This document shows positions 36,428 through 60,342 of a stretch of 64,000 bases of DNA, in pieces. A program made the position numbers and the translations under genes. The notes under the pieces are model-generated. The model saw nothing but the letters and a program-made list of their open reading frames with translations, had not been told where the DNA came from and ran no database searches. The DNA comes from Acidobacteriota bacterium. GTDB taxonomy: Bacteria > Acidobacteriota > CAIWXX01. The stretch covers positions 13,531 to 77,530 of the forward strand of contig JBFMAF010000009.1 in assembly GCA_040755995.1 (NCBI GenBank). Reading direction: 5' to 3'. The stretch's first letter is position 1; the number at the start of each line of letters is the position of its first letter.

Positions 36428-36572
36428 CAGGGGACGCTCTGGCGGCAGAAGGCTTCGTGGGGAGAGGCAGTGGCGCGGAGAACCGGCGAACCGGGGAAAC
36501 GGAGACGGGGGGAGGGCGGGTCGCGCTCACACCGCGCGCCCTGCCGGCCGAATAGAGCCAGAGGAAGAGGCA

Positions 36573-37040
36573 ATGGAGGATGTGGAATTCACGCGGGCGG
36601 TGCCGGGCGATCTGGCGGAGATTCGGGCGCTTCTGGTGTCTGCAGAACTGCCGGCCGCCGACATCGAGCCGCATATCAGCAACTTCATCGTGGCAAGGGC
36701 TGGGCAGGAGCTGATCGGGTCCATCGGCATCGAGGTGGCAGGCGATGCCGGGCTGCTCCGATCGCTTGCCGTTCGGCCGCCGTACCGCGGTCGCGGTATC
36801 GCTGAGACACTATGCAGCCGTCTCGAGGGCTACGCGCGGGCGCTCGGCGTACGCCGGCTCTACTTGCTCACCACCACCGCCGAGGGCTATTTCCGCAAGC
36901 GAGGGTATCAGCGCGTCCCGCGATCCGAAGCACCGGCAGGAGTGCAGTCCACCCACGAATTCCGATCGGCCTGCCCGTCGACTGCCGCGTGCATGCGGAA
37001 GGATCTTGTCGAGGCCGGGGCAGAAGCGGCGCGCACATAG
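36573..37040 (+). CDS. arsN2: GNAT acetyltransferase, ArsN2-like
   Basis: LLRSLAV..RGRGIA..YLLTTTAEGYF..EFRSACPSTAACM; directly after arsM. Confidence 0.8.
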   Translation: MEDVEFTRAVPGDLAEIRALLVSAELPAADIEPHISNFIVARAGQELIGSIGIEVAGDAGLLRSLAVRPPYRGRGIAETLCSRLEGYARALGVRRLYLLTTTAEGYFRKRGYQRVPRSEAPAGVQSTHEFRSACPSTAACMRKDLVEAGAEAART

Positions 37041-40382: not shown

Positions 40383-43300
40383 CTACAGTTTCCGGAAGGA
40401 CTCGATGGAGGACATCAACTTGGGGAGGCGTCCCTGGCAGGAGGTCTCCTCGGTCTTCCACTCGGTGCATTCGTTGTTCGTGGCGGTGGCACAGTAGCGG
40501 TCCTGTAGACTTGACTTGAATTCTCCTTCAAGGTGGTGGCCGAACCACTGATCCATTAAGAACTTGCCTTCTCCGGTGAAGCTCCCGGTCTCCTTCGTTG
40601 ACAGCTCGTGCTCGTTCATGCGCCAGTCTGCATCGGACGAGAATGTACCGTCGATCCGGAGCTGGTCCGCAACGAATGTGCCTTCGCCGGAAATCACGTG
40701 CCGCACCTTGCCATCTCCGATGTAGGGCTCGCTCCATTCCTTCGAGAATCGGAATCTGCCGTCGACCCCGACCTGTACCTGCAGCGTGACCGTGAATCTC
40801 AAGAAGCTCCAGTAGTGGTTCATGGCGGCGCATTCGGAACCTGCATCCGGGGTCTCCGCGGTGATGTCCAGGCTCAACTCGTAGTTGCCGACCGGCTCAC
40901 CGCCGACAGTGTCCGACGGCCTGCTCTCGAGGTAGACTGGATCGCCATTCTCATTCCTGCCGATCTCCACGGCACTGCTCACGGCCACTCTCGGTATCCC
41001 GTGCCCCGCCCAGCTCGGGATCTCTTCGGCCTTCATTTCGATGCGGCAGTTGACCCGGTCGACCGCCGGTTCCATCGCCCTGCTCTTGAGCTCGTTCACA
41101 TAGATGAAATAGCGGAACTCAGGCGCCCCCGCGCACGCGCCCTCCTGCGCGGCGGGAGGCGCTTTCCATGTCAGCACCAACTTGCCCCTGTCCACTTCCG
41201 CCGCAAGCTCCGCAGGCGGTTCCAGCGCGAACACCTTCGCCGGCTTGAAGCCGCGGACGTAGCCTGATCCAGTCTGCCCGGTGTCCACCACGTAGATGAA
41301 GGCGTCCTCGGCGAAGTCCATCTTGGTTGCGGCGTAGTCAGAGCTGAGCGGCGCCTGGTCCAGATCCCGGAGCTCCTGCACTTCCTCTTCCGATGCCTTC
41401 TCGCGGAAGAATACGCCTCTCTGGTTCCTGTCCTTCGGGAACCACTCCCGCGGAACTATCGCCGCGAGCTCGACGTTCTTCCGCTTCGGGCTCCTGAATT
41501 TCAAGAACTGGATCGACCACGACTTGATCAGGTTGTCGTCGATCTCGGTGCAGGCCGTCTGGCTGAAGTCGTAGAGCGCCGGCGTGAGACCGAACTCGGA
41601 GGTAGCATCCTTACTGTACGGGGAGTCCTGAAAAGGCCCGGATGTGTTCCCCGATTTCACATACTTGACCCAGTACGGCGCACTCTTGCCAAACTGCGCA
41701 GTTTCCTGGTCGCCCTTGAGGATCCTGGTCCTGGCGAAATCCAAGAAATACTCCCCGAGTTTCCTCTCATCGTCCCCCGCAGCCCACAAGAGCGCCTTGA
41801 AATTCGCGTTGTACCGGTTGCTTGCCCACGCACCGAGAATGTCACGCTGAAAAGAAAGGGGATCGCCTGCCTCGAGTGGAACGCGCAGCGAGCCGGCGTC
41901 GGCGGAGCACAGAGGCGAGGCGCCTCCGATTTCAAATCGCCGGTCCCTGAGGTACTCGAGAAACCAGCTCAGCGAGTAGCCGAACTTGCGCACAGGGACT
42001 TCCTGCCAGAACCATGCATCAGGTCCGCTCTTGAGGCTGTTGCGGAAGCCCAGGTACTGGGCCAACATCAGCCCATCCTGGCATGAGTACGGGCGTCCCG
42101 CGGCCGTGTAGCAAGCCTCTGCCTCTCGTTCCATCAGCAGTGCGGAGGCCTCCACGAACGGCAAATGTCCGTTCCGGTCGATCCAGACGTAGCCCGTCTG
42201 GTAGTGGTGAAAGAGCTCGTGCAGTGTCGCCGAGCTAAGCACTTCCGGCTTCAGATCCGCGGGCAGTACGAGATAGCGCCGGCCGGACCAGGGATTGTGC
42301 AGGTAGCCGTCATAACCCCGGAATGACGGTATGATGTAGACAGGCAGATTGCAGAAGGGGCGGCGGAACTTGCGCTTGTCCTCCAGGTACCGCCGCGCGA
42401 AATCGAGCGCCTTTTCGACGGCCACGGCCTGCTCGGGCATGATGAGGCTGCGCTTCAGGCGCGCCTCCTCGATGCGAAAATCCCACGCCAGATCGGGCGG
42501 CCAGCTGCCCGGGTCCGCATTCATCAGCCGATTGTTCGCCATCGTGCGGCGCCTGATGGCTTCGCGTCCCGCTTCGAAGGCCGACACGTCGTAGGGCATC
42601 AGGCCCGTACCCGGGTCAAGGCCCGGCATCTTCAGACTGTAGTAGATCTCGAGTCCCACCGGGTCGAGCTTGCTATTTCCCAGAAAGCCGATCCGCTTGA
42701 ACGGCGCATACTCCTGGAACTGGCTCGGGAACTCGTCGGGGAAGATGACCAGGCTGACCAGCGCGACCCCTGTCGCGACACCCGTGATCACGGCGCCGAT
42801 GATCGAGAAGTGCCGCGTGGTGAAAACCAGGTTGTCGCCCTCCATGGTGTACGGAAGGCTGTCCCAGGTCTTGCCGTCGAGGCTGATGACAGGCTGCACA
42901 ATCTGCCGGCCCGCGGCCCGGACCTGCGTGGTGTCGACCGCGATGCGCACATCCTCGGAGTAGAGACCCGCTTCGCTGCCAGCGTCTACTTCGAAAGCCA
43001 GGCCCAGTTCGGCCGGTTTCGCGCTCTCGCCCTCTGCGAGTGAAACTGAGAGGTTGGCAGGAGGCGGCACGCGCACCTCGTACAGGGAGATCTCGCGGTC
43101 CTCGGGCAGGCATTTCGCGGGAAACCGGACGCTGATGCCCGGAGCCTGAAGGCTGCCGCCGGCTGTCGTGGAGATCTTCCCGCTCGCGAGCTTTCTGACG
43201 CGCTCGACAGGGATCGGGGTTCCAGGTCTGATGCCGTAGTCCAGGCCCGTCAACGGCTTTTCCACAGCGGCCTCCGCGCCGCCCTGACCTTCCTGCGGCG

Positions 43301-43766
43301 ATGCGCCCCTTCCTCTGACCAGGTGAATCCCCAGCCACACCAAACCGGCTGCAGCAAGGCTCGCGAAGACGGTGCCGGCGGCGATCCATAGTGCCACCCT
43401 GCTGCCGCTGGCGCGCAGTGGTGCGGGAGGCGGCGGAGGCGGCGGCGTGGGCTCGGGCTGAGGCGCGCCGATGGCGTCATCGAAGGCGAAGATGACCCCT
43501 CCAATCTCTATCCGATCGCCGTGCTGCAGCCACGCCTTATCTATGCGGGCCCCGTTGAGCACCGTGCCGTTGGCGCTTCTCATGTCCTCCAGCCACCAGC
43601 CTTCCGTGCCGCGGTGAATAGCCGCATGGCGCCTGCTCACCTGGTTGTCGGACAGTCGCAGCGTGTTCTCAGGCGTGCGGCCAATCGCGAAGTGATCGTC
43701 CTCCAGCGGGATCACCCGATTGAGAAGCGCAGGGTCATCGGCCTGCACGACGATCAGGCTTGGCAC
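40383..43766 (-). CDS. FHA-domain membrane protein with ZU5-like/HFS region and HExxH metallopeptidase motif
   Basis: IGR..VSRRHA..SANGT FHA; poly-Pro linker; TM; TTRHFS; TLHELFHHYQ..EASA. Confidence 0.8.
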   Translation of the reverse strand: MPSLIVVQADDPALLNRVIPLEDDHFAIGRTPENTLRLSDNQVSRRHAAIHRGTEGWWLEDMRSANGTVLNGARIDKAWLQHGDRIEIGGVIFAFDDAIGAPQPEPTPPPPPPPAPLRASGSRVALWIAAGTVFASLAAAGLVWLGIHLVRGRGASPQEGQGGAEAAVEKPLTGLDYGIRPGTPIPVERVRKLASGKISTTAGGSLQAPGISVRFPAKCLPEDREISLYEVRVPPPANLSVSLAEGESAKPAELGLAFEVDAGSEAGLYSEDVRIAVDTTQVRAAGRQIVQPVISLDGKTWDSLPYTMEGDNLVFTTRHFSIIGAVITGVATGVALVSLVIFPDEFPSQFQEYAPFKRIGFLGNSKLDPVGLEIYYSLKMPGLDPGTGLMPYDVSAFEAGREAIRRRTMANNRLMNADPGSWPPDLAWDFRIEEARLKRSLIMPEQAVAVEKALDFARRYLEDKRKFRRPFCNLPVYIIPSFRGYDGYLHNPWSGRRYLVLPADLKPEVLSSATLHELFHHYQTGYVWIDRNGHLPFVEASALLMEREAEACYTAAGRPYSCQDGLMLAQYLGFRNSLKSGPDAWFWQEVPVRKFGYSLSWFLEYLRDRRFEIGGASPLCSADAGSLRVPLEAGDPLSFQRDILGAWASNRYNANFKALLWAAGDDERKLGEYFLDFARTRILKGDQETAQFGKSAPYWVKYVKSGNTSGPFQDSPYSKDATSEFGLTPALYDFSQTACTEIDDNLIKSWSIQFLKFRSPKRKNVELAAIVPREWFPKDRNQRGVFFREKASEEEVQELRDLDQAPLSSDYAATKMDFAEDAFIYVVDTGQTGSGYVRGFKPAKVFALEPPAELAAEVDRGKLVLTWKAPPAAQEGACAGAPEFRYFIYVNELKSRAMEPAVDRVNCRIEMKAEEIPSWAGHGIPRVAVSSAVEIGRNENGDPVYLESRPSDTVGGEPVGNYELSLDITAETPDAGSECAAMNHYWSFLRFTVTLQVQVGVDGRFRFSKEWSEPYIGDGKVRHVISGEGTFVADQLRIDGTFSSDADWRMNEHELSTKETGSFTGEGKFLMDQWFGHHLEGEFKSSLQDRYCATATNNECTEWKTEETSCQGRLPKLMSSIESFRKL

Positions 43767-43967: not shown

Positions 43968-45416
43968 TCAGAACAGGCTCTGGAGGTGCCTGGAGACGAC
44001 GAGGCGTTCGAACTTGGCCACTGAGCTGCAGATGAGGCATTCGAGTGCCTCGGTCATGGGGCCGAGCGGCTCGCCCGAAAAATGGTTCAGCATGAAGAAG
44101 GTGTGTCGATCGTCCACCGCATGATCGTTGTCCCGCAGGTAGTTCCTGGGATGCTGAAGGAATTCGTCCTTCTCCTGGTCGTCGCCGGCCAGGGTCGCGA
44201 AGATCCGGCGCAGGTCTTCGTCATCGAGGAAGTCGAGGACCACCTGCTTGTCCACCATGACGAACTTCGAGGCGAAGAAGTCATACTCCTCCTGGTAGCT
44301 CGTCGAGAGCGGCGGGCCCGGCCGGATCTTGCCGGCCTCGTCCGTGGTCCGATCGATCTGATGGCGGAAGCATGATGGGACCTTGGAGAACGGATCTCCG
44401 GTCAGCCCATAGGCGTTGGCTGGGCAACCGCGACACACCTGGTAGAAGTCGCAGCGCCCGCAGGCCTCATAGGATTCGGGGCGGCGGAACTTCTTCAGCA
44501 GCTCGGATCCCAGCCAGATCTCTTCAAACGACTGCTCCGGCATCTTCCCAACCGGGATAGGCAATCGGCGGCACGCGAGCAGCGTGCCATCGCTCAGAAG
44601 TGCGAATGAGTTCCAGGCGTTGAGGCACCCCGAGATCACGGGCGTATTCTCCAGGCCCATGGGATAGTACGTCTTGTTCTCGAACTGGGTGAGCTTGAGG
44701 AGATTGGGCTTCTCACGCATGGCGATGGGATTCCCGGAGGTCCGCAGCTGGTGCTTCTCCGCGAGGTACCGCGAGAACAGCTCTCGCATGCGCTCCGGCG
44801 AGAAAGCATACTTGTCCATCGTCGCTGCGTTTCCGACGAATGAGCCTACATCAAAGCTGAACGAATTCGAGGCCGTGCTCTCGGCGACGTACCGCATGAG
44901 CGGAATGAGCTCATGGGCGTTGCCGGGGAAAAGCGTGAACATGATATTGCTCTGGATGCCATGGCGCGCCAGCCGGTCCAGGGCTTCCACCGTGCGACCG
45001 AAGCTGCCCTCGGAACGGAAGTAGTCGTGTGTGGGCTCGAGGCCGTCCAGGCTCATTTGAAAGGCTTGCACCCGGAGGTTCTCCAGAAGCTCGATGTTCT
45101 CATCCGTGAGGGTCTCCGGATTACCCATAAGCCGAAAGTGCTTCCCGCGCCTGTTCAGCTCCGTCAGAAACCTCCTCAGGTCCGGCCGCAAGAACGGATC
45201 GCCGCCGGTGATCGAGAAATTCACGATCCGCGCGCCGTACCTGTCCTCGAACGCCTCGAAGCTGTCGAGAACCCGCATCATGCCCTCGTAGGACAACGTG
45301 TTCTTGCGCTCGCTCTCGAACGTAGCTTCGTCGTACATGTAGCAGTGCTTGCAGCGGTTCTCGCAGTCGGTCGTGATGTGCCACTGCACTGAAATCGCCG
45401 GAGGATAGGACTTCAT
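43968..45416 (-). CDS. radical SAM/SPASM peptide maturase
   Basis: QWHITTDCENRCKHC (CX3CX2C), ITGGDP, SLDG..THD..R; SPASM GCLNA..ACRR..CGRCDFYQVCRGCPA..C; AGGAG RBS. Confidence 0.92.
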   Translation of the reverse strand: MKSYPPAISVQWHITTDCENRCKHCYMYDEATFESERKNTLSYEGMMRVLDSFEAFEDRYGARIVNFSITGGDPFLRPDLRRFLTELNRRGKHFRLMGNPETLTDENIELLENLRVQAFQMSLDGLEPTHDYFRSEGSFGRTVEALDRLARHGIQSNIMFTLFPGNAHELIPLMRYVAESTASNSFSFDVGSFVGNAATMDKYAFSPERMRELFSRYLAEKHQLRTSGNPIAMREKPNLLKLTQFENKTYYPMGLENTPVISGCLNAWNSFALLSDGTLLACRRLPIPVGKMPEQSFEEIWLGSELLKKFRRPESYEACGRCDFYQVCRGCPANAYGLTGDPFSKVPSCFRHQIDRTTDEAGKIRPGPPLSTSYQEEYDFFASKFVMVDKQVVLDFLDDEDLRRIFATLAGDDQEKDEFLQHPRNYLRDNDHAVDDRHTFFMLNHFSGEPLGPMTEALECLICSSVAKFERLVVSRHLQSLF

Positions 45417-45482: not shown

Positions 45483-47471
45483 TCAAGGCCTTTCCGCAAT
45501 CGTCCGCTGGACGACGCCCGCATCGCTGAAGCGGTCTCCGCCGCCCCTCAGCAGAACCGCGCCGCCCGGATATTCGCTTCTCTCAGGCAGCGCGGTAGCC
45601 GGCTCGCAGAGGGCCAGGGCGAGCAGACGACCGCCTACCTCGATCATGAGCTTGCGGTCCAGTAGGGAATGAGCTGCCGCTTCGACCTCGGCCCTACTAT
45701 GACCGCGCGCCACCATCTGGTTCAGAAGCCTCCTCCATCCCACCGCAGCGTCACAAGCGAGGTGGATCTCGCGCTCGACCCCCTCCAACACGAACGACGA
45801 CGCCACTGCCACCGGACGCGTGTCGCGGATCCGGACGGCCGAGTCAGTAACGGTCATGATGAGGCAAGGAGCGCTCTCAGACCAGAATGCGATCTTCCAC
45901 TGTGCCGCGGCCTTGCTGGCGGCCAGTATGCCCGGGCGCGTGAGCAGCGTCTCGAAACGGGGATCAATTGCACGTTCCTCGTCCTCAAAGAAGCACACCA
46001 GACTTGCAAGGGCGTCGGGGCTGATGGGGTAGATGTAAGAGAAGAGCTCTGCCGGCTGCAGCTTCAGACCGAACTCTTGGGGACGCCCGTGGTACTGGCT
46101 GTAGCGATCGAGCCGCACACGAGCAAACGCCCACGGCGGCTGCAGGTGGCTGAGAAGCGGGAGCATCCGCGCCATCTCCCAATACCACTCATCGGCCTCG
46201 CCGGGGAAGTCACACATGATGTACCAACCCACGTAGACTCCGTATTGCCGGCACCACTTCAGGAACTGAACATTCTGCCAGGACTTGCAGCCCTTGTTCA
46301 TGTGCGCAAGGACCTTGTCGCTCAGACTTTCGATCCCACACCAGACCCAGGTCAACCCCGCATCCCGCATCGTCCTCACCTGCTCGCGGCTCAGGTTCGA
46401 CATGATCTGGTAGTAGATGCGGTACGGCGAACGCTTGCGCGCCAGATCCGGGAACAGCGTTCGGAAATAGCGCATCTCGAGGGAGTTGTCGGCGGCCAAA
46501 AACCGGGTCACACCGTGTCGATGATAGAGCGAATCAAGATCGCGCACCACCTGAGACGCGAGCTTGCTCCGAAAACGCCTGCCGCAGCCGTTCAGACTGC
46601 AGTACACGCATCCGCTCTTCTCCCCCCACCAGCAACCGCGGGATGTCTCGATGGGCAGAGACACCGCGATCTTGTCGCGGAAGGATGACTCCTTCAGTGT
46701 CCGGAAGTAGTCGTCGTAGTCGGGCACAGGCAGATCATCGAGAGACTCCACCGTCGCGCGCGGCGCGCCATCGGCCGGCCCGCGCGGATAACCGATGCGG
46801 CGATGCACCGGCGCGAATACGCCTTCTGGAAGCATCTCCGGCGCCACCTCGGTCCCCTTCTCCCGAATGGCCCGGACGAGCGGCGTGATCAGAGCGTCTG
46901 CTTCTCCGGAAACCACATAGTCAACCCAAGGAAAGAACGAGTGTGTGCTGCGGCCCATGATGGTCTCGCAGTTGGCACCTCCCATGACCGTGACGACATC
47001 CGGGGAAAACTCGCGCACGCGCTTCAACAGCGCAATTGACGACAGGTGCTGCATGTAGGTCGTTCCGCACCCGACCATGAAAGGCTTCCGCTCCAGAATA
47101 CGCCCGGCGAGATCATCCACAAACCGGCCCGCCTTCTCACGGACCGAGAGCATTATGTCCTTCAACTCACCGGCGTCGCAGCCGCGATACATGCGGTTGC
47201 GATCGATCAGCCGCCGGATGAAACGGTCGTGGTCGGATTCGAATCCTGGGAAGACGAGGTGGGAGAATGTCCAATCACCCAGAGCGTCTTGCGGGCGCGT
47301 CCCTGTGATGAGCATGTGACGGTGCAGCCCGATCTCACGCGCGAACAAGAGATCGGCATAGACAGTCTCCACGGCCCAGCCGTCGCGGATCAACACCGCC
47401 TGAAGCAGCCCCAGCGCGACCGACGGGCGCTCGATCGGCGTATAGGGCATGTTCACAAGGCATATGTCCAT
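45483..47471 (-). CDS. B12-dependent radical SAM RiPP maturase (TIGR03975-like C-methyltransferase) 3
   Basis: LVNMPY..PSVALGLL, MGGANCE, SGEAD, ETSRGCWWGEKSGCVYC (CX7CX2C), HLQPP..RLDRYS. Confidence 0.9.
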   Translation of the reverse strand: MDICLVNMPYTPIERPSVALGLLQAVLIRDGWAVETVYADLLFAREIGLHRHMLITGTRPQDALGDWTFSHLVFPGFESDHDRFIRRLIDRNRMYRGCDAGELKDIMLSVREKAGRFVDDLAGRILERKPFMVGCGTTYMQHLSSIALLKRVREFSPDVVTVMGGANCETIMGRSTHSFFPWVDYVVSGEADALITPLVRAIREKGTEVAPEMLPEGVFAPVHRRIGYPRGPADGAPRATVESLDDLPVPDYDDYFRTLKESSFRDKIAVSLPIETSRGCWWGEKSGCVYCSLNGCGRRFRSKLASQVVRDLDSLYHRHGVTRFLAADNSLEMRYFRTLFPDLARKRSPYRIYYQIMSNLSREQVRTMRDAGLTWVWCGIESLSDKVLAHMNKGCKSWQNVQFLKWCRQYGVYVGWYIMCDFPGEADEWYWEMARMLPLLSHLQPPWAFARVRLDRYSQYHGRPQEFGLKLQPAELFSYIYPISPDALASLVCFFEDEERAIDPRFETLLTRPGILAASKAAAQWKIAFWSESAPCLIMTVTDSAVRIRDTRPVAVASSFVLEGVEREIHLACDAAVGWRRLLNQMVARGHSRAEVEAAAHSLLDRKLMIEVGGRLLALALCEPATALPERSEYPGGAVLLRGGGDRFSDAGVVQRTIAERP

Positions 47472-47472
47472 T

Positions 47473-49467
47473 CTACGCACCTGATCCTGTGTGGCGGTCC
47501 CTTCCATCGAGCCGCGCTCGTGCGGCCTCCGATACCAGCCCTCCACCGGGGTAGTCGCTCAAGCCCGGCATCTCTGCGCACGGTTCACGGACGGCGAGCG
47601 AGATCAGATGCCCATCCGAAGAGAGCAGCAACTTGCGGTCGACGAGGTCCCGTGCGGCGCGCTCGACTTCCGATTTCGCGAACCCCCGCTCAGCGAGGGC
47701 CCGCTGGACGTTCTCTCCTGAGGGTGCATCGTCGCAGGCAAGGTAGAGGCTGCGCGACAGCCCGGTAAGCTCGAACTCCGGCTGCGAGGCCGCCGGACGT
47801 GTGTCCCGGATCCTGATGCGCGAGCGTGTGACGGTCATCGACAGGACGGGCCGCATGGCCGAGTAGAACCGCCGCGTCCAGTCGTCCACGGCCCGCCGCA
47901 CGGCCCGGATGCCCGGCCTTCTCATCAGGGGGCTGAAGAGCGGGTTGCGCGCCCGCGCGGGGTCCTCGAAGAAGTAGACCTGATTCTGGAGGTCTTCGCG
48001 ACTCAGAGGGTAGATGTATGCGTAGAGTCTCGCCGGCATCAACCTCAGGCCGTACTGCTTGGCTCGAAAATGGTAGTCACTGTAGCGATCGAACCGGACG
48101 CGGGTGACCTCAGCCGGCGGCTGCAGATGCGAGAGCAGCGGCAGATCACGGGCCAATTCCACGTACCAGCCGTCGTCCTCGCCCGGCAGGTCGCACATCA
48201 AGTTCCAGCCCACGTAGATACCGTGTTGCCGGCACCACTTGAGAAGCTGCACATTCTGCCTGGCAGTCACACCTTTGTTCATTAGCTTCAGTGCCCGCTC
48301 ATGAAGATGTTCGATGCCGGCCCAGACCCAGGTGAGGCCCGCATCGCGCATCAGCCCGACCTGCCGCTTGCTCAGGTTGGGCCTGACATCGAAGAAAAGT
48401 CGGACAGGCATGCGCCGGCGCGCCAGCTCGGGCAGTAGTGAACGGAAGAAATCGAGGTTCATGACATTGTCGACGGTCTGGATACGATCCGCCTGATAGC
48501 GCTCGAGCAGTGTGTCGATTTCTCTCAGAACCTGGCCGGCAGGTTTGGAGCGAAAGCGCTTACTCTGCGGCAGGATCCCACAGAATGTGCACGATCGCTT
48601 CTGTCCCCACCAGCAACCGCGCGAAGTCTCCAGCGGAAGCGCTGGAAGGATCATGCGCCGCAGCCATGCCGGCAGGTCGTTCAGCGTGTCGAAGTAGTCG
48701 TGAAAGTCCGGCACCGGGAGGGACTGGAGCGACCAGTACACGGCGCGCGGCGCGTCATCGCCGCCGCTCACGGAGGCGCGGGGATATCCGAGAGTGCGAT
48801 GAATCGGGGCGAACACGCCGTCGGCCAGGCCGTCGCCATACGCCTCGCGGCCATTCTGCAGAATCGCGCGCACGAGCGGAGCGATCAGGCCGTCGGCCTC
48901 GCCGGAGACGACGAAGTCGACCCACGGAGACGACTTGTGCGTGGTGCGGCCCATCACGGTCTCGCAGTTCGCTCCGCCCATCAACGTCACCACATCCGGC
49001 GCCAGCTTCCGAATGCGTTTGAGCAGGGCAAGCGAGGGCACATGTTGATTGAAGGACGACGTGCAACCCACTATGCGCGGTCTGCGCTCGAGAACGCGAG
49101 TCGCAAGGCGATCCACGAACTCGGCGGCGGCGCCGCGCACCGCGAAGACTGCCTCCTTGAACCGGTCCGGTTCACAGCCCTCAGGCAGCCGGTTTCGCCG
49201 GATGACATGATCGAGATACTCGTCGTGATCGGGGGCGAAGTCCGGGAATGCGATGTGGGCGAATGTCCAATCACGGAGCGCGTCGGATGACATGGTCTTG
49301 ATGACGAGCCGGTATGGACGTATCCCGATCGCCTCCAGGAAGAGCAGGTTCGCGTACACGCTCGCGACCGAGAATCCGTCGCGTTCGAGAATCGCCTGCA
49401 GAAGGCCCAGGGCCATCGAAGGCTGGATCGGTGGCGCGTACGGCATGTTGACGAAGCACACGTCCAT
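47473..49467 (-). CDS. B12-dependent radical SAM RiPP maturase (TIGR03975-like C-methyltransferase) 2
   Basis: FVNMPY..PSMALGLL, MGGANCE, ETSRGCWWGQKRSCTFC (CX7CX2C), HLQPP..RFDRYS. Confidence 0.9.
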   Translation of the reverse strand: MDVCFVNMPYAPPIQPSMALGLLQAILERDGFSVASVYANLLFLEAIGIRPYRLVIKTMSSDALRDWTFAHIAFPDFAPDHDEYLDHVIRRNRLPEGCEPDRFKEAVFAVRGAAAEFVDRLATRVLERRPRIVGCTSSFNQHVPSLALLKRIRKLAPDVVTLMGGANCETVMGRTTHKSSPWVDFVVSGEADGLIAPLVRAILQNGREAYGDGLADGVFAPIHRTLGYPRASVSGGDDAPRAVYWSLQSLPVPDFHDYFDTLNDLPAWLRRMILPALPLETSRGCWWGQKRSCTFCGILPQSKRFRSKPAGQVLREIDTLLERYQADRIQTVDNVMNLDFFRSLLPELARRRMPVRLFFDVRPNLSKRQVGLMRDAGLTWVWAGIEHLHERALKLMNKGVTARQNVQLLKWCRQHGIYVGWNLMCDLPGEDDGWYVELARDLPLLSHLQPPAEVTRVRFDRYSDYHFRAKQYGLRLMPARLYAYIYPLSREDLQNQVYFFEDPARARNPLFSPLMRRPGIRAVRRAVDDWTRRFYSAMRPVLSMTVTRSRIRIRDTRPAASQPEFELTGLSRSLYLACDDAPSGENVQRALAERGFAKSEVERAARDLVDRKLLLSSDGHLISLAVREPCAEMPGLSDYPGGGLVSEAARARLDGRDRHTGSGA

Positions 49468-49503
49468 GCTCGCCACCGCCGCCCTACATCGGCACTGGCC
49501 GGG

Positions 49504-51701: not shown

Positions 51702-51989
51702 ATGCGGTCACAAGTTCACAAGGACCTGAAGACGCAGATCCAGAAGAAGGTCGCCACGAGCGCTCAATTCCGCGAGGCCCTGTTGAAGGATCCCAAGGGC
51801 ACCATCGGGAAAGAGTGGGGAATCAAGGTTCGCCCGGACATCAACATCGTCGTGCACGAGAACACCGCGAACACGGTCCACTTCATACTTCCCGACGCCA
51901 AGGCCGAGCTCTCTGAACGCGAACTGGAAGCGGTGGCGGGTGGTCGCGTGGGCGCATGGAGCTGTGCCTGCGGTCCCAGCATCGGATAG
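51702..51989 (+). CDS. NHLP-leader RiPP precursor; predicted core RVGAWSCACGPSIG
   Basis: AAGGAGG RBS; FREALLKDPK..IVVHENTANTVHFILP..ELSERELEAVAGG double-glycine site; lies beside the NHLP export genes. Confidence 0.95.
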   Translation: MRSQVHKDLKTQIQKKVATSAQFREALLKDPKGTIGKEWGIKVRPDINIVVHENTANTVHFILPDAKAELSERELEAVAGGRVGAWSCACGPSIG

Positions 51990-51996
51990 GTGAGCT

Positions 51997-52041
51997 CATC
52001 CCCGCGCGGGGATGGTAGGCGCAAGCCCCGGTTGTTGGGGC
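51997..52041 (+). terminator. stem-loops directly after the precursor stop (mRNA stabiliser/attenuator candidate)
   Basis: Perfect 18-bp palindrome CATCCCCGCGCGGGGATG (51997-52014), then GCCCCGG-TTG-TTGGGGC; no U-tract. Confidence 0.45.
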
Positions 52042-52168: not shown

Positions 52169-54853
52169 TTGAGCAGCTCATCTCGGTACCATGCCGAATG
52201 CCTGCTCCTGCATGCGGGCGTGGCCACGATCGCAACTGGGCTGCCCTCGATCTGCCGGTACCTCAGAAATGCGGGGGTCGCCGCTGAAATACTGCGGATC
52301 GCGCCCTCCGTGGTCGAGACTCTTGCGGACGACATCGCGCGTTTCACGAATCTCAGACTGATCGGCATCTCGATGCACTGGCACCCGCAGGTGCCGATCA
52401 GCATCAAGCTCGCGGAGCTTCTTCGAGCCCTGCCGGGTTCGCGCCATGCCGCGATCGTAATCGGCGGCATGACCGCGAGCTACTTCGCCGAGGAGCTGAT
52501 CCGCCTGCCCTTCGTCGACTTCGTGATCAAAGGCGACGGTGAGCTGCCGATGCTGCTCCTGTTTCGATCACTGTGCGGCTCCGTCGTGCCTCTCTCATCG
52601 GTGCCTAATCTCTACTTCAAGCGGAACGGCGAGGTGGTTCGGAGTCGCGAGACCTACTGCATAGATGAAGAGACGTTGGCATCTCTGGAGCGGCAGGTCA
52701 TCGACGATGGCGAGTGGTTTCCTCAGACAAGATCAGTTCTGAGCGTCGGCAGAGGTTGTGACTATGATTGTATCGCTTGCGGAGGAAACCGGCGTGGGCT
52801 TCCAAGGTGGGGCAATAGAATCGCTGCCATGCGAAGGGACCCGGGCTCTATAAGAGTCTCTATTGAGAAGCTGTTGAGCCAGGATGCCGGGCGGCTCTTT
52901 CTGCTGAACGACTACGACGGCCGATTCGAGATGCTGGGCACATGCCTGCAGGAATTCGACCTGTCGGCCTTCAAGACCCTGGCCGTCGATGCGTGGGGAC
53001 TGCCGCGGTTCGAGAATCTGCAGAGGGCGTTGGCAGGCACCAGGCCTGGCGGCGATCTCGTCGTGACCCTGGAATTGAGCCCGGAGGCGGGCAACGAAGA
53101 GACCCGAGCCAGGGTCAGATCATGTTCCTACTCCAACGCGGACCTGACTGAGCTCATGGATCGGGTGTTCTCGCACTACCGGAACATCCGCATCGTGCTC
53201 TGCTTCACATACTTCCTGCCTTTCTCGGACAAGTACAACCTGGAAACCCGCAGCTTCATCCGCTCGCTGACAACGACCTATCTCCAGCAGATCCTCGAGA
53301 ACAGGCTCCAGATCCAGTTCTGGCCCCTGTCCACTGATCCGGGCTCGTCGATCCAGCAGGACATGGTTGAGGGCCTCAGGCACGACGTACATGCGCTGGC
53401 TGACTATCTGGGCAAGATGCTGGCGATGCGCTCGACCGGCGGCAACTTGCTTAGACATTGGCCGGCGGAAATGGAGCCCGGGGAGATCGACTACCTCTGC
53501 CGCTTCTTCACCTACGAGAACGTTCTGCGGCTCCTTTATCCCGTGCTGTATCTCAACCTGGTCCAGCTCTTCGACGAGTTCAGCGGATATGACCAGTTCG
53601 TAAGGAGCTCGTTCGAACCCTTCTATGACATCCATCTGAGAAACTCATCCTCATCGGCCATGCACGCTCTGCATGTGTCGCTGGATTCATCGAGCATCTT
53701 CGGCTTCGCCTTCTCGGGAGACGAAGCGCTGCCCAAGCTCCCTCTGGTTCTCGTCTGGCTCAGGTTCCTCGAACGAGGATTGCGGAAGCACGCTGGAGAG
53801 TCTCTCCCGGCGCGCGCCAGCCGCAGGTCACAAGCTTGCCTGTGTCCCGATCTGGTCAGCCCGCTCTCTACCAAGGGCGATGATTTCGCCTCCTTCTCGG
53901 GCGCCGAGAACGTGTCAATGGAGTGGACCGATCTGCACTCTTATGTGCTCGAACTGCTCGACCTCATCGCGCGCCGTGAGGCATTTCGTCTGGGACAGGC
54001 CGGTCGCAAGAAACCGTTGTTCCTCGACTTCCTTCTGTACAACGACCGGAAGGTCGACGCCATCATCGAGCGCGGGCTGTTCCGTTGCGAGCTTCTCCCC
54101 GCCGCCAATGTTCTCTGCGAGATCATTCCGATACGCCGGGCGCATGTGATCATCCCGCCGCTCACGAGCCACGAGAACCTTCGATTGCTCGGTGCGAGGC
54201 TCTTCGAGAAGCTGATCTGCGGAGCCGACTACCGAGACGGATCGGCGAGCTGGCAGAGGGAATTGAGAGCGGAGCTCTCTGCGGAGGGAGACCTCAGGGA
54301 AGTCGTGGAGGGCCGTGTGGAGGAGCTCTGGCGGACGGTTCTGCGAGACGAACAGAGCGACCTCGGCAGAGTTCTCACCGATCTGATCATCTCAAGCCAC
54401 GTTCCGAGCAACCAGATCCTCGCCCGGATGGGTATCTCACAGGACGACGAGGCCCTTCGTGCTGCGGCGACCTCCGGATCGAGCACCCTCAGGCTTCGGT
54501 TGCGTGATCTGTACGGAGTTTTCGGAGATCGCTGTGACATTCGCCTCGCTGCCTTCTACCTGAATCACACGAAGTCTACCTGCCGGTTTCGAGAGGTCGT
54601 TCGGCCGGGCTCGGAGGAGGTCGCCATCCTGACCACGATCTACTATCCTGATCCATGCGGACACGATGGAGCGTTCGTGTTCTCTGCGGGGCTGGACCCG
54701 ATCGAGCTGGAAGCACTGCGGCTCTGCGATGGGACCCACACAATGAACGAGATCCTCAGCAGACTGGACGAGAGGTTCCCTGAGAGCCGCCTCAGCGGGC
54801 CCCGGCTTGGCGACATGATGATTTCGTTCTACAGCAGGCAGCTCGTGTACTAG
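52169..54853 (+). CDS. large B12-binding radical SAM protein with C-terminal PqqD/RRE-like domain
   Basis: LIGISMHW..IVIGGMTASYF..VDFVIKGDGE B12 region; GRGCDYDCIAC (CX3CX2C); C-terminal LRLCDGTHTMNEILSRL; TTG start uncertain. Confidence 0.8.
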   Translation: MSSSSRYHAECLLLHAGVATIATGLPSICRYLRNAGVAAEILRIAPSVVETLADDIARFTNLRLIGISMHWHPQVPISIKLAELLRALPGSRHAAIVIGGMTASYFAEELIRLPFVDFVIKGDGELPMLLLFRSLCGSVVPLSSVPNLYFKRNGEVVRSRETYCIDEETLASLERQVIDDGEWFPQTRSVLSVGRGCDYDCIACGGNRRGLPRWGNRIAAMRRDPGSIRVSIEKLLSQDAGRLFLLNDYDGRFEMLGTCLQEFDLSAFKTLAVDAWGLPRFENLQRALAGTRPGGDLVVTLELSPEAGNEETRARVRSCSYSNADLTELMDRVFSHYRNIRIVLCFTYFLPFSDKYNLETRSFIRSLTTTYLQQILENRLQIQFWPLSTDPGSSIQQDMVEGLRHDVHALADYLGKMLAMRSTGGNLLRHWPAEMEPGEIDYLCRFFTYENVLRLLYPVLYLNLVQLFDEFSGYDQFVRSSFEPFYDIHLRNSSSSAMHALHVSLDSSSIFGFAFSGDEALPKLPLVLVWLRFLERGLRKHAGESLPARASRRSQACLCPDLVSPLSTKGDDFASFSGAENVSMEWTDLHSYVLELLDLIARREAFRLGQAGRKKPLFLDFLLYNDRKVDAIIERGLFRCELLPAANVLCEIIPIRRAHVIIPPLTSHENLRLLGARLFEKLICGADYRDGSASWQRELRAELSAEGDLREVVEGRVEELWRTVLRDEQSDLGRVLTDLIISSHVPSNQILARMGISQDDEALRAAATSGSSTLRLRLRDLYGVFGDRCDIRLAAFYLNHTKSTCRFREVVRPGSEEVAILTTIYYPDPCGHDGAFVFSAGLDPIELEALRLCDGTHTMNEILSRLDERFPESRLSGPRLGDMMISFYSRQLVY

Positions 54854-54934
54854 AGGCCCGGGCATGCGCCAGATCCACATGTGGTCCGAGAGTGAGATGC
54901 GCGAGGCAATGGAGGGTCTTCGCCGTTTCCGCCG

Positions 54935-54943
54935 TGGTATACT
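54935..54943 (+). promoter_or_regulatory. extended -10 element upstream of the export genes
   Basis: TG-g-TATACT about 40 nt upstream of the RBS-backed GTG at 54984. Confidence 0.4.
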
Positions 54944-54983
54944 GGGACCCGATGTCAATGCGCTGGCCGTGAGAGGAGACAAG

Positions 54984-56552
54984 GTGTCCTCCGCCCTTAC
55001 GCTGGATCACAGGCATGTTAGGACAGTGTGCCTGCTCTGGGCCCTGACGTTCACGGCGCAGCTCTGGGGCCAGTCGCAGACAGGGCTTTCTCTGCAAGAG
55101 GCGGTACGGATCACGATCGAACGCCAGCCCGAGATCCTGGCTCAGAAGCAGCTGGTGGAGTCCGCACGCGGTTCGCTCGTGGCCGCCGGCGGCCAGTTCG
55201 ACTCGATGCTCCAGGCATACCTCAGTGTTGAGCACGAAGACTCGCCGCTCACGCGCGAGATACAGAACGAGCTGCAGCTGTCAAGTCTCAAGACCGACAC
55301 TGCCTCATATGGCATCGGGGTCGAGAAGCAGTTTCGCACCGGGCTGACGCTTAACCCGACCATCTCGTTCCAGAGAATCGAGGACAACTCGACGAATGTG
55401 ACCGCACCCAACTACGGTACGGCCAACCTGCAGATCACGCAGCCGCTGATGAGAGGCTTCGGCAGGGACGACGTGGCGGCAGCCGAACGATCCGCTGCGG
55501 CCGATTACCGGGCGGCCGTCGATACACTGCACCATACGATGGCCACCGATGCAGTGAACGCGGTGGTGGCCTATTGGGACTATGTCGGATATCAGCAGGT
55601 GTTGGCCGCGCGAAAGGAGACCGAGGAGCTCGCTCACAACCTGCTGGATCAGACCAAGGCGCTGATCGAGGCCGACCAGCGCCCGGCGTCTGAAATCAAC
55701 AAGGTCACTGCCAACCTGGCCTCCGCCACCGCCCAGCGAATCTCTGCCGAGCAGGATCTCTACGAGGCGAAGCAGAATCTCGGTCTTGCCATCGGCCTGA
55801 ATTGGGAAGAGATCGAGGCGATGAGGGAGCCTTCGGACGACTTCCCGGAGGTGGATGAGAACGATCTGCCATCTCTGTCGTCGATCGGGAGCTTCGTGCA
55901 GACTGCGTTGGTCGAACGTGGCGATCTGGCCGCAGCCAGGGAGACCCGCGAGTCGGCGCGTATTCTGTCGGTGGGGGCGGTCAAGGCGAGCCGGCCGCAG
56001 CTGGATCTGGGCGTGGGGCTGGGATTCGAGGGCATTGTCGAGGGCAAGGAGCCAAGCCATTTCCTGACCGCCTTCACGGACAACGTGCCCGGCCCCAGCC
56101 TGAATGCGTCTCTGACTTTCGGATGGCCGTTCGGCAACAGATCGGCGGTCGGACTCGTGGAACAGAACGAGGCCGAGCACCGACAAGCCATTATCGCTGC
56201 TGACGATCTGGCGAGAAGAATCGCCTCGTCTGTGGCCGCGGCCCTGTCGAGCGTGAGACAGAGAGGGTTGCAGCTGAAGAAGGCCGAAGAAGCCGCGGCG
56301 GCTTATCGAGTGGCAGTAAGCAACGAAACCCAGATACACCAGGCGGGGCTGTCCACGACGCTCGAGGTAATTCAGACCGAGGATCTGCTCTCGTCGGCGC
56401 TCATTGACCTGGTATCGGCCAGGCACGACTACGCCGTGGCCGTGGCTCTGCTTCGCTATCAGACTGGTACGCTGATGAGGTTCGACAGCTCAGGAGCGGT
56501 GACGGCTATCGAGCTGATGAGCCTCCCGTCGATTGAGGCCCCGCCCGAATGA
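54984..56552 (+). CDS. TolC family outer-membrane efflux protein
   Basis: Signal-like N-terminus, LSLQEAVRITIERQP, ITQPLMRGFG, AGLSTTLEVIQTE; AGGAG RBS. Confidence 0.88.
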   Translation: MSSALTLDHRHVRTVCLLWALTFTAQLWGQSQTGLSLQEAVRITIERQPEILAQKQLVESARGSLVAAGGQFDSMLQAYLSVEHEDSPLTREIQNELQLSSLKTDTASYGIGVEKQFRTGLTLNPTISFQRIEDNSTNVTAPNYGTANLQITQPLMRGFGRDDVAAAERSAAADYRAAVDTLHHTMATDAVNAVVAYWDYVGYQQVLAARKETEELAHNLLDQTKALIEADQRPASEINKVTANLASATAQRISAEQDLYEAKQNLGLAIGLNWEEIEAMREPSDDFPEVDENDLPSLSSIGSFVQTALVERGDLAAARETRESARILSVGAVKASRPQLDLGVGLGFEGIVEGKEPSHFLTAFTDNVPGPSLNASLTFGWPFGNRSAVGLVEQNEAEHRQAIIAADDLARRIASSVAAALSSVRQRGLQLKKAEEAAAAYRVAVSNETQIHQAGLSTTLEVIQTEDLLSSALIDLVSARHDYAVAVALLRYQTGTLMRFDSSGAVTAIELMSLPSIEAPPE

Positions 56553-56790
56553 TTGACGAGATGCAGCCATGGGAGCGGGCGACCCCTATAGGTTGTGGTC
56601 GTTCTCCGAGTCTCCCCCCACTGCGTCCCCGTGTCAATTGCGAGACGCCACGGCCCGCCTTGTGGCGAAAGCCGAAGCAACGGCCGGTTCCGACCGCACG
56701 GCCGCAATCTGTTGGAATCACCCCCGCCGACCGGAGAGGCACCGTGAGCGAGAGGGCGGCCGGGGACTCTGCTCGGGAGGCTGAACTCCA

Positions 56791-58130: not shown

Positions 58131-58146
58131 CCCAGGCGGTGAACCA

Positions 58147-60342
58147 GTGAGCATCGCTGGACGACTCCGGGACTTGCTAGCAGGCTCGATGCGCACAAGG
58201 CGCGTGAAGACACCGACGGTTCTGCAGATGGAGGTGGTCGAATGCGGCGCCGCGGCGCTCGCCAGCGTGCTCGGCTACCACGGCCGGGTGGTGCCGCTGG
58301 AGGAGCTCCGGGTCGAGTGCGGGGTCTCGCGTGACGGCAGCAAGGCCAATAACATGCTGAGGGCCGCACGGAGCTACGGCATGATCGCGAAGGGTTTTCG
58401 CAAGGAGCCTGCGGAGCTGCGGGAGCTCTCCCTGCCCATGATCGTGTTCTGGAACTTCAATCATTTCGTGGTGGTCGAGGGATGGGGAAAGGGCCTGGTC
58501 TACATCAACGACCCTGCCTGCGGGCCGAAGACTGTCAGCGAGGATGAGTTCGATGAGTCGTTCACGGGGGTGGCGCTGACCTTCGAACCGGGCCCCGACT
58601 TCACGAAGGGCGGCGTCAGACGGTCGCTCTACAGGGCACTGGCCAGCCGCCTTCCCGGCTCCGAAACGGCTCTCGCCTATATCGTCCTGGCGGGTCTGAT
58701 GCTCGTCATTCCGGGCATCGTCATCCCGACGTTCACCAAAGTGTTCGTGGACGACTACCTGGTCGCGGGGATGGATTCATGGATCAAGCCGCTACTCCTG
58801 GCCATGGGCCTCACGGCGGTCATGCGAGGCGTGCTCACCTGGCTCCAGCAGCGTTTCCTGCTCCGCCTGCAGACGCGCATGACATTGAGCTCCTCCAGCA
58901 AGTTCCTCTGGCACGTGCTGCACCTGCCAATCGAGTTCTTCTCGCAGAGGTTCGGAGGTGAGATCGGATCGCGCGTCGCTATCAATGACCGCATAGGGCA
59001 GCTGCTTTCGGGCGATCTCGCCACCTCCGTGCTCAACCTCGTGACCCTGGTCTTCTACGCGGCCCTGATGTTCAGGTATGACCGGGTGCTGACCCTGGTC
59101 GGGATTCTCGTCTGCCTCCTGAACATCGAAGGCCTGAGGCTCGTCTCGCGCAAGCGCACGGATCTCAACCAGAGGTACCTGCAAGAGAGCGGCAAGCTCC
59201 TGGGAACCGGCATGAGGGGGCTGCAGATGATCGAGTCGCTGAAGGCCTGTGGCTCCGAATCGGACCTCTTCTCGAGATGGGCCGGCTATCAGGCCAAGGC
59301 CATGAATGCTCAACAACAGATGGGCCTGTATACCCTAATACTCTCAGCGCTGCCTTCGCTGCTGTCTTCCCTCAACACTGTCGCCATCTTGGGGATCGGC
59401 GGACTGCGGATCATGGACGGGCACCTCAGCATGGGCATGCTCGTCGCTTTCCAGAGCCTCATGTCGAGCTTCACCGACCCCGTGAACAAACTGGTCAACC
59501 TCGGCGGCACTCTACAGGAAGCCGAAGGCGACATGAACCGGTTGGAGGACGTGCTGCGGTGCGATGTGGAGAAGTCGATTACGGGCGCGGAGAGTGCATC
59601 GGGTTCGTCGCAAGCTGCGGGGACACTGGCCGGTTCCCTGGAGCTGAGAAATGTGACGTTCGGCTACTCGCGCCTCGATCCACCCCTGATCGCCGATTTC
59701 AGTCTCGTCCTGAAGCCCGGTGATCGGGTGGCTCTTGTCGGGGCCACGGGAAGCGGGAAGTCGACCATATCCAGGCTGGCCTCGGGCCTGTATCAGCCGT
59801 GGCAGGGAACGGTGTTGCTGGATGGGATGCCGCGTGATCAGATCCCTCGGGACCTCATAACCAATTCGGTCGCGATGGTCGATCAGGACATCTTCATGTT
59901 CGAAGGCTCCGTCCGTGACAACCTGACGCTGTGGGATACGACCGTGTCTGAGGCGGACCTGATCAGGGCCGCAAAGGACGCCTCTATTCATGAGGACATC
60001 GCCGCAAGACAGGGCGGCTATGATTGCCGGGTCGCCGAGGCGGGCAGGAATTTCAGCGGAGGTCAGCGCCAGCGCATGGAAATAGCCAGGGCGCTGGTCG
60101 GGAACCCATCGGTTTTGGTTCTCGACGAAGCTACAAGCGCCCTTGACACCAGGACCGAGGCGACAATCGACGACAACCTGCGCCGGCGCGGTTGCACCTG
60201 CCTCATCGTGGCACATCGGTTGAGCACGATCAGGGATTGCGATGAGATCATCGTGCTGGACCGGGGAACCGTCGTCCAGCGCGGCACGCACGATGAGCTT
60301 GTCAAGGTCGAGGGCCCATACGCCGAGTTGATAGGACAATGA
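58147..60342 (+). CDS. NHLP export ABC transporter, C39 peptidase/permease/ATPase
   Basis: TPTVLQMEVVECGAA, WNFNHFVV, INDP; GATGSGKS, FSGGQRQR, LDEATS. Confidence 0.95.
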   Translation: MSIAGRLRDLLAGSMRTRRVKTPTVLQMEVVECGAAALASVLGYHGRVVPLEELRVECGVSRDGSKANNMLRAARSYGMIAKGFRKEPAELRELSLPMIVFWNFNHFVVVEGWGKGLVYINDPACGPKTVSEDEFDESFTGVALTFEPGPDFTKGGVRRSLYRALASRLPGSETALAYIVLAGLMLVIPGIVIPTFTKVFVDDYLVAGMDSWIKPLLLAMGLTAVMRGVLTWLQQRFLLRLQTRMTLSSSSKFLWHVLHLPIEFFSQRFGGEIGSRVAINDRIGQLLSGDLATSVLNLVTLVFYAALMFRYDRVLTLVGILVCLLNIEGLRLVSRKRTDLNQRYLQESGKLLGTGMRGLQMIESLKACGSESDLFSRWAGYQAKAMNAQQQMGLYTLILSALPSLLSSLNTVAILGIGGLRIMDGHLSMGMLVAFQSLMSSFTDPVNKLVNLGGTLQEAEGDMNRLEDVLRCDVEKSITGAESASGSSQAAGTLAGSLELRNVTFGYSRLDPPLIADFSLVLKPGDRVALVGATGSGKSTISRLASGLYQPWQGTVLLDGMPRDQIPRDLITNSVAMVDQDIFMFEGSVRDNLTLWDTTVSEADLIRAAKDASIHEDIAARQGGYDCRVAEAGRNFSGGQRQRMEIARALVGNPSVLVLDEATSALDTRTEATIDDNLRRRGCTCLIVAHRLSTIRDCDEIIVLDRGTVVQRGTHDELVKVEGPYAELIGQ

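Follow-up and report, generated by a model that had tools for sequence, protein, structure and literature searches.

A radical SAM/SPASM maturase related to SbtM and the ACGX enzymes as the probable cysteine-modifying enzyme of an NHLP-leader peptide in an Acidobacteriota bacterium

Introduction

SbtM is a radical S-adenosylmethionine (SAM) enzyme that forms thio(seleno)oxazoles (PMC9204691), a reaction correctly named in an earlier note on the gene described here. At Gly-Cys/Sec (selenocysteine) sites the change amounts to -4 Da, with hydrogen abstraction from the Cys beta-carbon and a band at 304 nm (PMC9204691; PMC13638132), and the product remains reactive towards iodoacetamide (PMC9204691). 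The ACGX maturases (TIGR04340), an uncharacterised family defined as a hypothetical equivalog, share a motif series with the enzyme studied here. Two further systems bear on the locus: the proteusins, in which a Cx7Cx2C-type motif is known from the methyltransferase PoyC (in bottromycin, outside the proteusins, Phe, Val and Pro are methylated by three enzymes of this type; PMC11285071), and the bufferins, copper binders carrying 5-thiooxazoles made by MNIO enzymes, Cys-derived thiooxazoles being copper chelators (PMC12452194).

The locus lies in a 64,000-nucleotide stretch (the window) of contig JBFMAF010000009.1, positions 13,531 to 77,530, from the Acidobacteriota bacterium assembly GCA_040755995.1. 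The gene at 43968..45416 encodes a radical SAM protein with a SPASM domain, hereafter the maturase, which is most likely the cysteine-modifying enzyme of an exported, C-methylated peptide with an NHLP leader.

Results

Sequence and model of the maturase

The open reading frame (ORF) of the maturase is intact, encoding 482 amino acids without an internal stop, and AGGAG is found 7 nt upstream of the ATG. Its features are as follows.

43968..45416, minus strand: radical SAM/SPASM maturase of the QWH-type clade, 482 amino acids, no N-terminal RiPP (peptide made on the ribosome and modified after translation) recognition element (RRE) extension, from profiles, an AlphaFold2 (AF2) model and a tree
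45339..45386, minus strand: QWH and CxxxCxxC motif QWHITTDCENRCKHCY, residues 11-26, with C18, C22 and C25
44370..44627, minus strand: SPASM domain with seven cysteines, C264, C282, C319, C322, C328, C331 and C349
44076..44249, minus strand: C-terminal helical domain, about residues 390-447, weakly Os1348/NHLP-leader-like

The Pfam domains Radical_SAM (68.6 bits) and SPASM (38 bits) were each matched above threshold, and the AF2 model gave a mean predicted local distance difference test (pLDDT) score of 93.4. All catalytic cysteines are intact in the alignment, the seven SPASM cysteines being kept together in 82 of 86 aligned homologs and QWH in 78 of the 81 rows covering that motif. The cysteine pattern points to three Fe-S clusters (CxxxCxxC plus SPASM ligands), as in SbtM, and by likeness to the ligand pattern of CteB, SuiB and TigE (PMC10878394) auxiliary cluster I (AuxI) would have three ligands and an open iron. 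The further motifs listed in the earlier note, ITGGDP, MGNP, SLDGLEPTHDYFR, ACRR and CRGCPA, are present in the translation. CxxxCxxC, GGDP, SLDG and the SPASM cysteines are generic; QWH, GNP and CRR are discriminating, because TIGR04340 and TIGR04082 (SbtM) rank first and second for the maturase among 60 families. A Foldseek search with the whole model returned generic SPASM enzymes only, with SuiB and ChlB among the top matches (15-19% identity). The best PDB sequence matches, SkfB and CteB, were remote (E 2.7e-9 and 9.5e-6) and lack QWH and GNP.

Relation to the ACGX and SbtM families

The maturase scored 235.1 bits against TIGR04340, the best of the 60 families, for which the cut-off is 400, and 180.7 bits against TIGR04082, for which it is 350, the latter match covering profile positions 199-515 only. 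The third-ranked family gave 126 bits. The same order was obtained with 24 homologs: TIGR04340 was the top family for all 24 and TIGR04082 the runner-up for 23 of them, with none above cut-off, and of the 71 representatives scanned out of 150 two exceeded the TIGR04340 cut-off and none that of TIGR04082. At E <= 1e-30 the ACGX profile retrieves 1,406 representatives, not all of them inside the clade described below. On these scores, and on its position in a separate clade, the maturase is a member of neither family. Scores for the non-peptide SPASM families were likewise below cut-off (AhbD 120.9 of 500 bits, NirJ2 103.9 of 500 bits).

Over-cut-off ACGX loci were taken from 7 of 300 genomes. 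At six of the seven a peptide with 4-7 [A/S]CG[A/S/T] repeats adjoins the enzyme, as the earlier note had stated, although three of these loci are near copies; at the seventh the adjoining peptide is different and Cys/Ser-rich. Genuine TIGR04340 members have the QWH, GGDP, GNP, CRR and CRGCP series in common with the maturase, and the top two ESM Atlas clusters for the maturase bear the ACGX name, which is assigned automatically. The ACGX enzymes differ in being about 345 amino acids long without a C-terminal tail, and their repeats end in A, S or T in peptides with no NHLP leader. The peptide encoded near the maturase contains A-C-G in its predicted core, as a single ACGP and without ACG[A/S/T] repeats, and TIGR04341 gave no match to this precursor at E <= 0.05 (the L061 control scored 60.5), so that the ACGX motif is not supported as the link that had been drawn from it. 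An ACGX-repeat peptide with its enzyme was also seen on a contig from a viral collection (L080:2700-4010).

Two SbtM-family genes were found above the TIGR04082 cut-off (713 and 496 bits). One is full-length, and the peptide gene ahead of it contains, after Ser-Gly, three in-frame TGA codons, in agreement with the selenopeptide described in PMC9204691. Close to the other is a TIGR04222 membrane protein bearing a tail of GGCG repeats. Membrane proteins of the TIGR04222 family that have Gly/Cys tails (L074:9767-10702, L075:11033-11986) occur in the vicinity of an SbtM-family gene and of a basal QWH-type gene. PMC12452194 leaves such proteins unexplained where MNIO partners are lacking, and their modification may instead be the work of radical SAM enzymes. 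Short QWH-type enzymes, archaeal and other (L009, L010, L030, L031), stand beside 1-4 tiny Cys/Gly-rich peptides and a glycosyltransferase; the peptides have a common K-Y-x-x-W leader word, and the two that were scanned matched no family.

The maturase and SbtM have in common their clade, eight diagnostic residues, seven SPASM cysteines and peptides nearby in which Cys/Sec precedes or follows Gly. They differ in that profile positions 1-198 of SbtM are absent from the maturase (and from one over-cut-off SbtM member), the maturase bears a C-terminal tail, its precursor has an NHLP leader, and C-methyltransferases and NHLP export genes are added to the cluster. Its core shows neither the Gly-Sec/Cys GGUG-type motif nor the in-frame UGA of SbtM-type precursors; the genome carries selA.

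Phylogeny and shared residues

A careful tree was built from 54 chosen rows of the radical SAM and SPASM region (LG+G4), with an outgroup of 8 rows made up of six AhbD-like proteins, below the AhbD cut-off, and two SPASM proteins of the source genome. SbtM, the ACGX-related enzymes and the maturase lineage formed one clade (99/97) against the 8 other SPASM rows. Within it the SbtM pair (100/100) was sister to the rest (100/96), the maturase lineage made up one branch of 19 rows (100/99), and the ACGX rows formed their own clade (100/100), nested among short archaeal and Bacillota enzymes with the maturase outside. The same two groups came apart in a quick tree of 104 rows, in which the position of the single SbtM row was not resolved. 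Holding the maturase lineage and ACGX together was not rejected (p-AU 0.079). The trees place the maturase outside ACGX, to which its lineage is possibly sister, a relation neither shown nor rejected; the direction given in the earlier note, recruitment of an ACGX-like enzyme, is not supported. Similarity placement, which that note had also proposed, is in part achieved: the maturase stands apart from the outgroup SPASM rows, in a tree to which no ranthipeptide, sactipeptide or cyclophane enzyme had been added on purpose.

Q11, H13, P100, Q120, M159, F188, K236 and R283 of the maturase occur in each of the two SbtM rows and of the 6 ACGX rows and in none of the 8 outgroup rows, and six of the eight lie on or beside barrel strands or the SPASM hairpin in the model. 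Together with the clade and the top two family scores they bear out the kinship with SbtM and the ACGX enzymes that had been proposed. Identity of the maturase to the ACGX rows is 29-35%.

The precursor and its core

51702..51989, plus strand: NHLP precursor of 95 amino acids, TIGR03793 66 bits (cut-off 50.9), divergent from the enzyme operon
51945..51986, plus strand: predicted core RVGAWSCACGPSIG, 14 residues after a double Gly, with Cys7 encoded by TGT at 51963-51965 and Cys9 by TGC at 51969-51971

The precursor is the sole TIGR03793 match in the genome. Cleavage behind Gly-Gly would be expected from the C39 peptidase of the cluster. The core codons are without UGA, and Cys7 and Cys9 are preceded by Ser and Ala; the SC and ACGP words and the residues W5, C7 and C9 are thus as the earlier note had read them. 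A perfect GC-rich inverted repeat, seen by eye at 51998-52015 directly after the precursor stop codon, could stabilise the precursor transcript.

The precursor search gave 16 candidates that reduced to 10 proteins, one of which ends before the core, leaving 9 cores for comparison. R1, W5, S6, C7, C9, G10, P11, S12, I13 and G14 are invariant in all nine, while whole-precursor identity drops to 46% among proteins with invariant cores. Position 8 is Ala in seven and Ser in two. Because this position varies, and because none of the 43 xCGx words at the ACGX loci ends in Pro, the ACG word alone is weak evidence; the significant signal of the core is the invariance of W5-S6-C7-x-C9-G10-P11-S12-I13-G14. 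The invariance of both cysteines agrees with the earlier proposal that cysteine is the likely target.

Pairing of the maturase with an NHLP-leader substrate, also proposed before, is borne out by locus L001, in which gene order and core are identical and the enzyme is 87% identical. Two more enzyme-precursor pairs lie on contigs matching in size (121,163 and 10,034 bases), and are presumed from this to share a contig. The system is rare, with a match at E <= 1e-50 in 3 of 401 genomes of the same phylum, the source genome included. Prediction of the enzyme-precursor complex gave a score of 0.55 against 0.00 for the best of 3 controls, with at least 53% of contacts shared between runs and a partner pLDDT of at least 70. 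Among 157 solved pairs 116 come up to the mark for this score, against 2 among 215 mismatched ones, and the scores at 0.60 or under comprise 18 of the 157 solved pairs plus both of these mismatches; the prediction, a model, lends weak backing to the pairing.

The enzyme might instead act on another substrate or be a passenger, for it lies 6.3 kb from the precursor on the opposite strand, six lineage loci have no precursor nearby, and the complex score is weak. With gene order kept in L001, the two further pairs, a single NHLP precursor in the genome and catalytic cysteines that are all intact, this explanation is quite improbable.

Proposed chemistry

By analogy with SbtM, an even chance is given to oxidation of Cys9, and perhaps Cys7 too, to 5-thiooxazole. 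This estimate is made because SbtM branches below the maturase lineage, because the diagnostic residues are common to both, and because the peptides adjoining most branches of the clade, others than that of SbtM included, are rich in x-Cys-Gly. In this scheme cleavage of SAM would yield a 5'-deoxyadenosyl radical while the thiolate of Cys9, at the x-Cys-Gly site, would bind the open iron of AuxI. Loss of hydrogen from the Cys beta-carbon with electron transfer would produce a thioaldehyde, ring closure by the backbone carbonyl of Ala8/Ser8 a 5-thio-oxazoline, and a second SAM turnover the 5-thiooxazole (-4 Da, absorbing near 304 nm, with its thiol unconsumed). A second ring would perhaps arise in the same manner from Cys7 and the carbonyl of Ser6. 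C-methyl groups would be added by the three TIGR03975 enzymes of the cluster, for which Val2/Leu2, Pro11, Ile13 or Trp5 are guesses, and the C39 transporter would cut after Gly-Gly and export the 14-mer, perhaps as a metal binder. The SbtM product being still iodoacetamide-reactive, thiol alkylation alone cannot refute a thiooxazole; the earlier note, in which finding both Cys free was to count against the proposal, erred for this branch.

Several observations weigh against the 5-thiooxazole. The clade as a whole is bracketed by a single characterised enzyme, and the maturase is only 27-31% identical to the SbtM rows. SPASM relatives at such a distance often differ in chemistry. The SbtM site is Gly-Cys/Sec and that of the maturase core Ala/Ser-Cys, and D189 is special to the maturase lineage, its place being taken by Asn in SbtM and by small residues in the ACGX enzymes. 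Of the seven distinct lineage loci with a visible leader-like peptide, three have Cys-free cores (L020, L033, L079) and four Cys-holding ones (L001, L003, L004, L005), with x-Cys-Gly in only three; the leader calls at these small ORFs are weak, two matching TIGR03798 below cut-off, two matching nothing and two unscanned. At six lineage loci (L006, L019, L022, L023, L049, L077) no precursor was seen in the 480-900 bases read upstream. The L020 enzyme is without C264, that of L079 without Q11, H13, M159, K236 and R283, and that of L033 is truncated; the losses in L020 and L079 would fit a drift from cysteine chemistry, a partial excuse only, since the L004 and L005 enzymes also lack C264, yet their cores contain Cys. 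The seven-cysteine SPASM domain, moreover, is equally typical of thioether enzymes (PMC10878394, PMC10177961).

Two observations on these loci stand apart. In the L004, L005 and L020 enzymes, which are Chlamydiota-labelled or close kin, one or both N-terminal AuxI cysteines are lost and the remaining gene is intact. The leader-like peptide at L003:9704-9966 contains a repeat of 10 codons in two copies, with the Cys codon TGT in copy one and TGA at the same place in copy two; Sec read-through was rejected in favour of a probable stop, since no selA candidate turned up in its genome, G402, the completeness of which is uncertain. A search of 4 genomes in all found selA in 3.

Alternative products

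The best placed alternative, unlikely all the same, is a thioether (a ranthionine or sactionine), in which the AuxI-bound Cys thiolate would be joined to a carbon radical of another core residue with the loss of 2 Da per ring and consumption of the thiol. A seven-cysteine SPASM domain with the substrate Cys/Sec at the auxiliary cluster is documented for thioether enzymes (PMC10177961, PMC10878394), the core has two invariant cysteines, and SkfB and CteB are the top PDB sequence matches. These matches are, however, remote and lack the QWH and GNP motifs, the thioether families score far below the 181 bits of SbtM (PapB 50.6, AlbA 45.6, StsB 49), and the core offers no Asp, Glu or Asn as acceptor.

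Somewhat less probable still is the same first step, oxidation at C-beta of Cys or Ser, leading to a different end product such as formylglycine, an enethiol, a thiazole or chain cleavage, in which case Ser6 could be the target. Cysteine thioaldehydes partition among such products (PMC13638132), and D189 is unlike SbtM. The L005 and L020 enzymes are 77% identical, and their homologous adjoining peptides show Cys against Ser in register before Gly, a difference that speaks for this outcome. Both enzymes are nevertheless without the AuxI ligand C264, which the maturase keeps, and only three such sequences were found.

A cross-link made by the maturase from Trp5 to the sulfur or C-beta of Cys7 or Cys9, giving a cyclophane-like ring, ranks a shade lower again. 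W5 is invariant two residues ahead of Cys7, and SuiB and ChlB are among the top fold matches, but these are generic, and Trp is found neither in the peptides linked to ACGX and SbtM enzymes nor in most cores of the maturase lineage. A methyltransferase can also account for the conservation of W5, as can the B12-binding radical SAM protein at 52169-54853, from which any Trp5 chemistry could come.

Least probable of all is a proteusin-type epimerase acting without mass change: the NHLP leader with B12 C-methyltransferases is the polytheonamide pattern (PMC11285071), but TIGR04517 gave no match to the maturase at E <= 0.01, its only match being a gene on source-genome contig C44 (488.5 bits) which has its own Nif11 precursor. 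The maturase thus clusters with neither the epimerases nor, lying outside the AhbD-like rows, the non-peptide SPASM families, either of which the earlier note had held to be damaging.

The C-terminal tail

About 130 residues follow the SPASM domain of the maturase and are helical and confidently modelled. An NHLP-leader-like fold for this tail was predicted from the alignment first, and then tested. Of 9 tails, 3 were matched by the Os1348 profile NF038399, of the NHLP clan, the best of them at E 1.9e-6; each match fell below the cut-off of 40, and the maturase's own tail was not among them. In a profile-profile comparison (hhalign) tail residues 407-442 aligned with leader residues 15-51 at a probability of 0.8% and E 0.069. 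When the tail model was compared with 48,161 chains the top match was Os1348 (Z 5.8, root-mean-square deviation 4.2, 58 residues aligned), the only one at Z >= 5, a value in the chance range for helical domains; LigA (Z 4.2) and SonA (Z 4.1) ranked 8 and 9. Foldseek with the tail model found nothing at E <= 0.001, and ESM Atlas with the tail alone gave no usable match. The tail profile retrieved neither the precursor from the six-frame ORFs of the genome at E <= 20 nor any of ten stored precursors, and in the reverse search the maturase's tail was not in the top 30 of 161 for the leader profile. Five of 161 enzymes bear an additional, clear C-terminal NHLP-leader domain (23-57 bits).

The resemblance is weak but repeated, and the tail may well be homologous to the NHLP clan. 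It differs from the helical fold of Os1348, LigA and SonA in that it belongs to an enzyme and is not followed by a core. Docking of the maturase on the substrate leader through the tail is put forward as a hypothesis, on which the complex prediction is silent because no interface was given. Os1348 is a homodimer in the crystal (PMC7726476). A general oligomerisation of NHLP leaders was considered and dropped, being contradicted for MprE7, a monomer by small-angle X-ray scattering (PMC10858898); only Os1348 is reported as dimeric. Further C-terminal fusions are seen in the relatives P0015, P0028, P0094, P0107, P0108 and P0141, with a prenyltransferase/squalene-cyclase-like domain (Pfam labels) in some and a winged-helix-like extension (by eye) in others.

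The leader-like tail and the B12 protein as an alternative source of Trp chemistry are the points that the earlier note missed.

The gene cluster

The maturase is the last gene of an operon-like run behind three genes for TIGR03975 B12-dependent C-methyltransferases (cut-off 281.85 bits), and the export genes lie downstream of the precursor.

45483..47546, minus strand: B12-dependent RiPP C-methyltransferase a (Cx7Cx2C), TIGR03975 633 bits, likely start ATG at 47471
47473..49476, minus strand: B12-dependent RiPP C-methyltransferase b (Cx7Cx2C), TIGR03975 641 bits
49504..51504, minus strand: B12-dependent RiPP C-methyltransferase c (Cx9Cx2C), TIGR03975 639 bits
52169..54853, plus strand: B12-binding radical SAM protein, 894 amino acids, CxxxCxxC, Pfam B12-binding 47 bits, no family above cut-off
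54864..56552, plus strand: TolC-like outer membrane efflux protein, Pfam OEP 109 bits
56791..58041, plus strand: NHLP secretion adaptor (HlyD), TIGR03794 341.5 bits (cut-off 156.2)
58147..60342, plus strand: NHLP export ATP-binding cassette (ABC) transporter with C39 peptidase, TIGR03796 1115.8 bits (cut-off 853.3), Pfam C39
60441..63350, plus strand: second ABC transporter subunit, from the translation only

TIGR03793, TIGR03794 and TIGR03796 are all matched above cut-off, as befits an NHLP-leader RiPP cluster. The B12-binding protein gave 112 bits against TIGR04190 (cut-off 500) and has a 64% ortholog in L001.

On the same strand, 200 bases downstream of the maturase, the gene at 40383-43766 codes for a protein of 1127 amino acids that begins with an FHA domain and also contains a membrane segment and an HExxH-like word; it was dropped as a cluster member, not being conserved beside the enzyme in L001. 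The genes at 35588-37040, which from their translations we take to be arsenite-methyltransferase-like and GNAT-like, stand behind a MarR-like regulator. In L001:11496-18825 two further methyltransferase and radical SAM gene pairs directly follow the SPASM gene. Their orthologs (69-78%) lie on source-genome contig C40 at 54852-58479 and 73320-77017, where no precursor was seen, and might act in trans on the same peptide.

Contig C44 of the source genome holds a second, polytheonamide-like cluster (about 78760-90950; L082:761-12952) with a Nif11-leader precursor whose Thr/Val/Glu-rich core ends in Cys-Leu-Thr, the TIGR04517 epimerase, NHLP-type export genes and five tandem TIGR03975-like methyltransferases. 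These methyltransferases were rejected as parts of the maturase system, the cluster having its own precursor and epimerase.

Discussion

The locus is a real, uncharacterised RiPP system that, by analogy, probably works like SbtM. With the proteusin and NHLP clusters (PoyB/PoyC, and the three-methyltransferase pattern of bottromycin) it has in common the NHLP leader, the Cx7Cx2C methyltransferases and the C39 exporter; it differs from them in its 14-residue core and in having an SbtM-clade SPASM enzyme instead of an epimerase, and neither YcaO nor LanM was found among the scanned ORFs. With the bufferins it would have the predicted product chemistry and export in common; the enzyme superfamily and the signal peptide differ, and metal binding by the product is a guess. 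In its fullest form the picture would be of a widespread third branch beside SbtM and ACGX, in which the RRE is replaced by an NHLP-leader-fold domain that docks the NHLP/Nif11 leader of the substrate in the manner of the Os1348 homodimer, with one or two 5-thiooxazoles installed in a triply C-methylated, exported 14-mer, a radical SAM route to a bufferin-like metal binder. As a whole this is rather unlikely.

In a library that lacks most subscription papers, no paper was found on the maturase lineage, the core or the ACGX family, although network figures and supplementary tables (for example in the 2022 radical SAM RiPP atlas) may already list such clusters. Literature searches likewise found none on a leader-like domain fused to an enzyme, and, by title and start of abstract, none on this system among those joining thiooxazole with SPASM, proteusin or NHLP.

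Within the clade a reported reaction was found for SbtM alone, and the SbtM substrate is a selenopeptide. The cluster described here offers a short invariant core with plain cysteines and a soluble single-gene enzyme, which makes thiooxazole chemistry testable across the clade, the uncharacterised ACGX family included. If the tail does bind the leader, this would be a recognition mode absent from those described for NHLP leaders in PMC12715784, PMC12537861 and PMC12455567, which involve enzyme surfaces or inserted side chains, and it would provide a portable handle for engineering.

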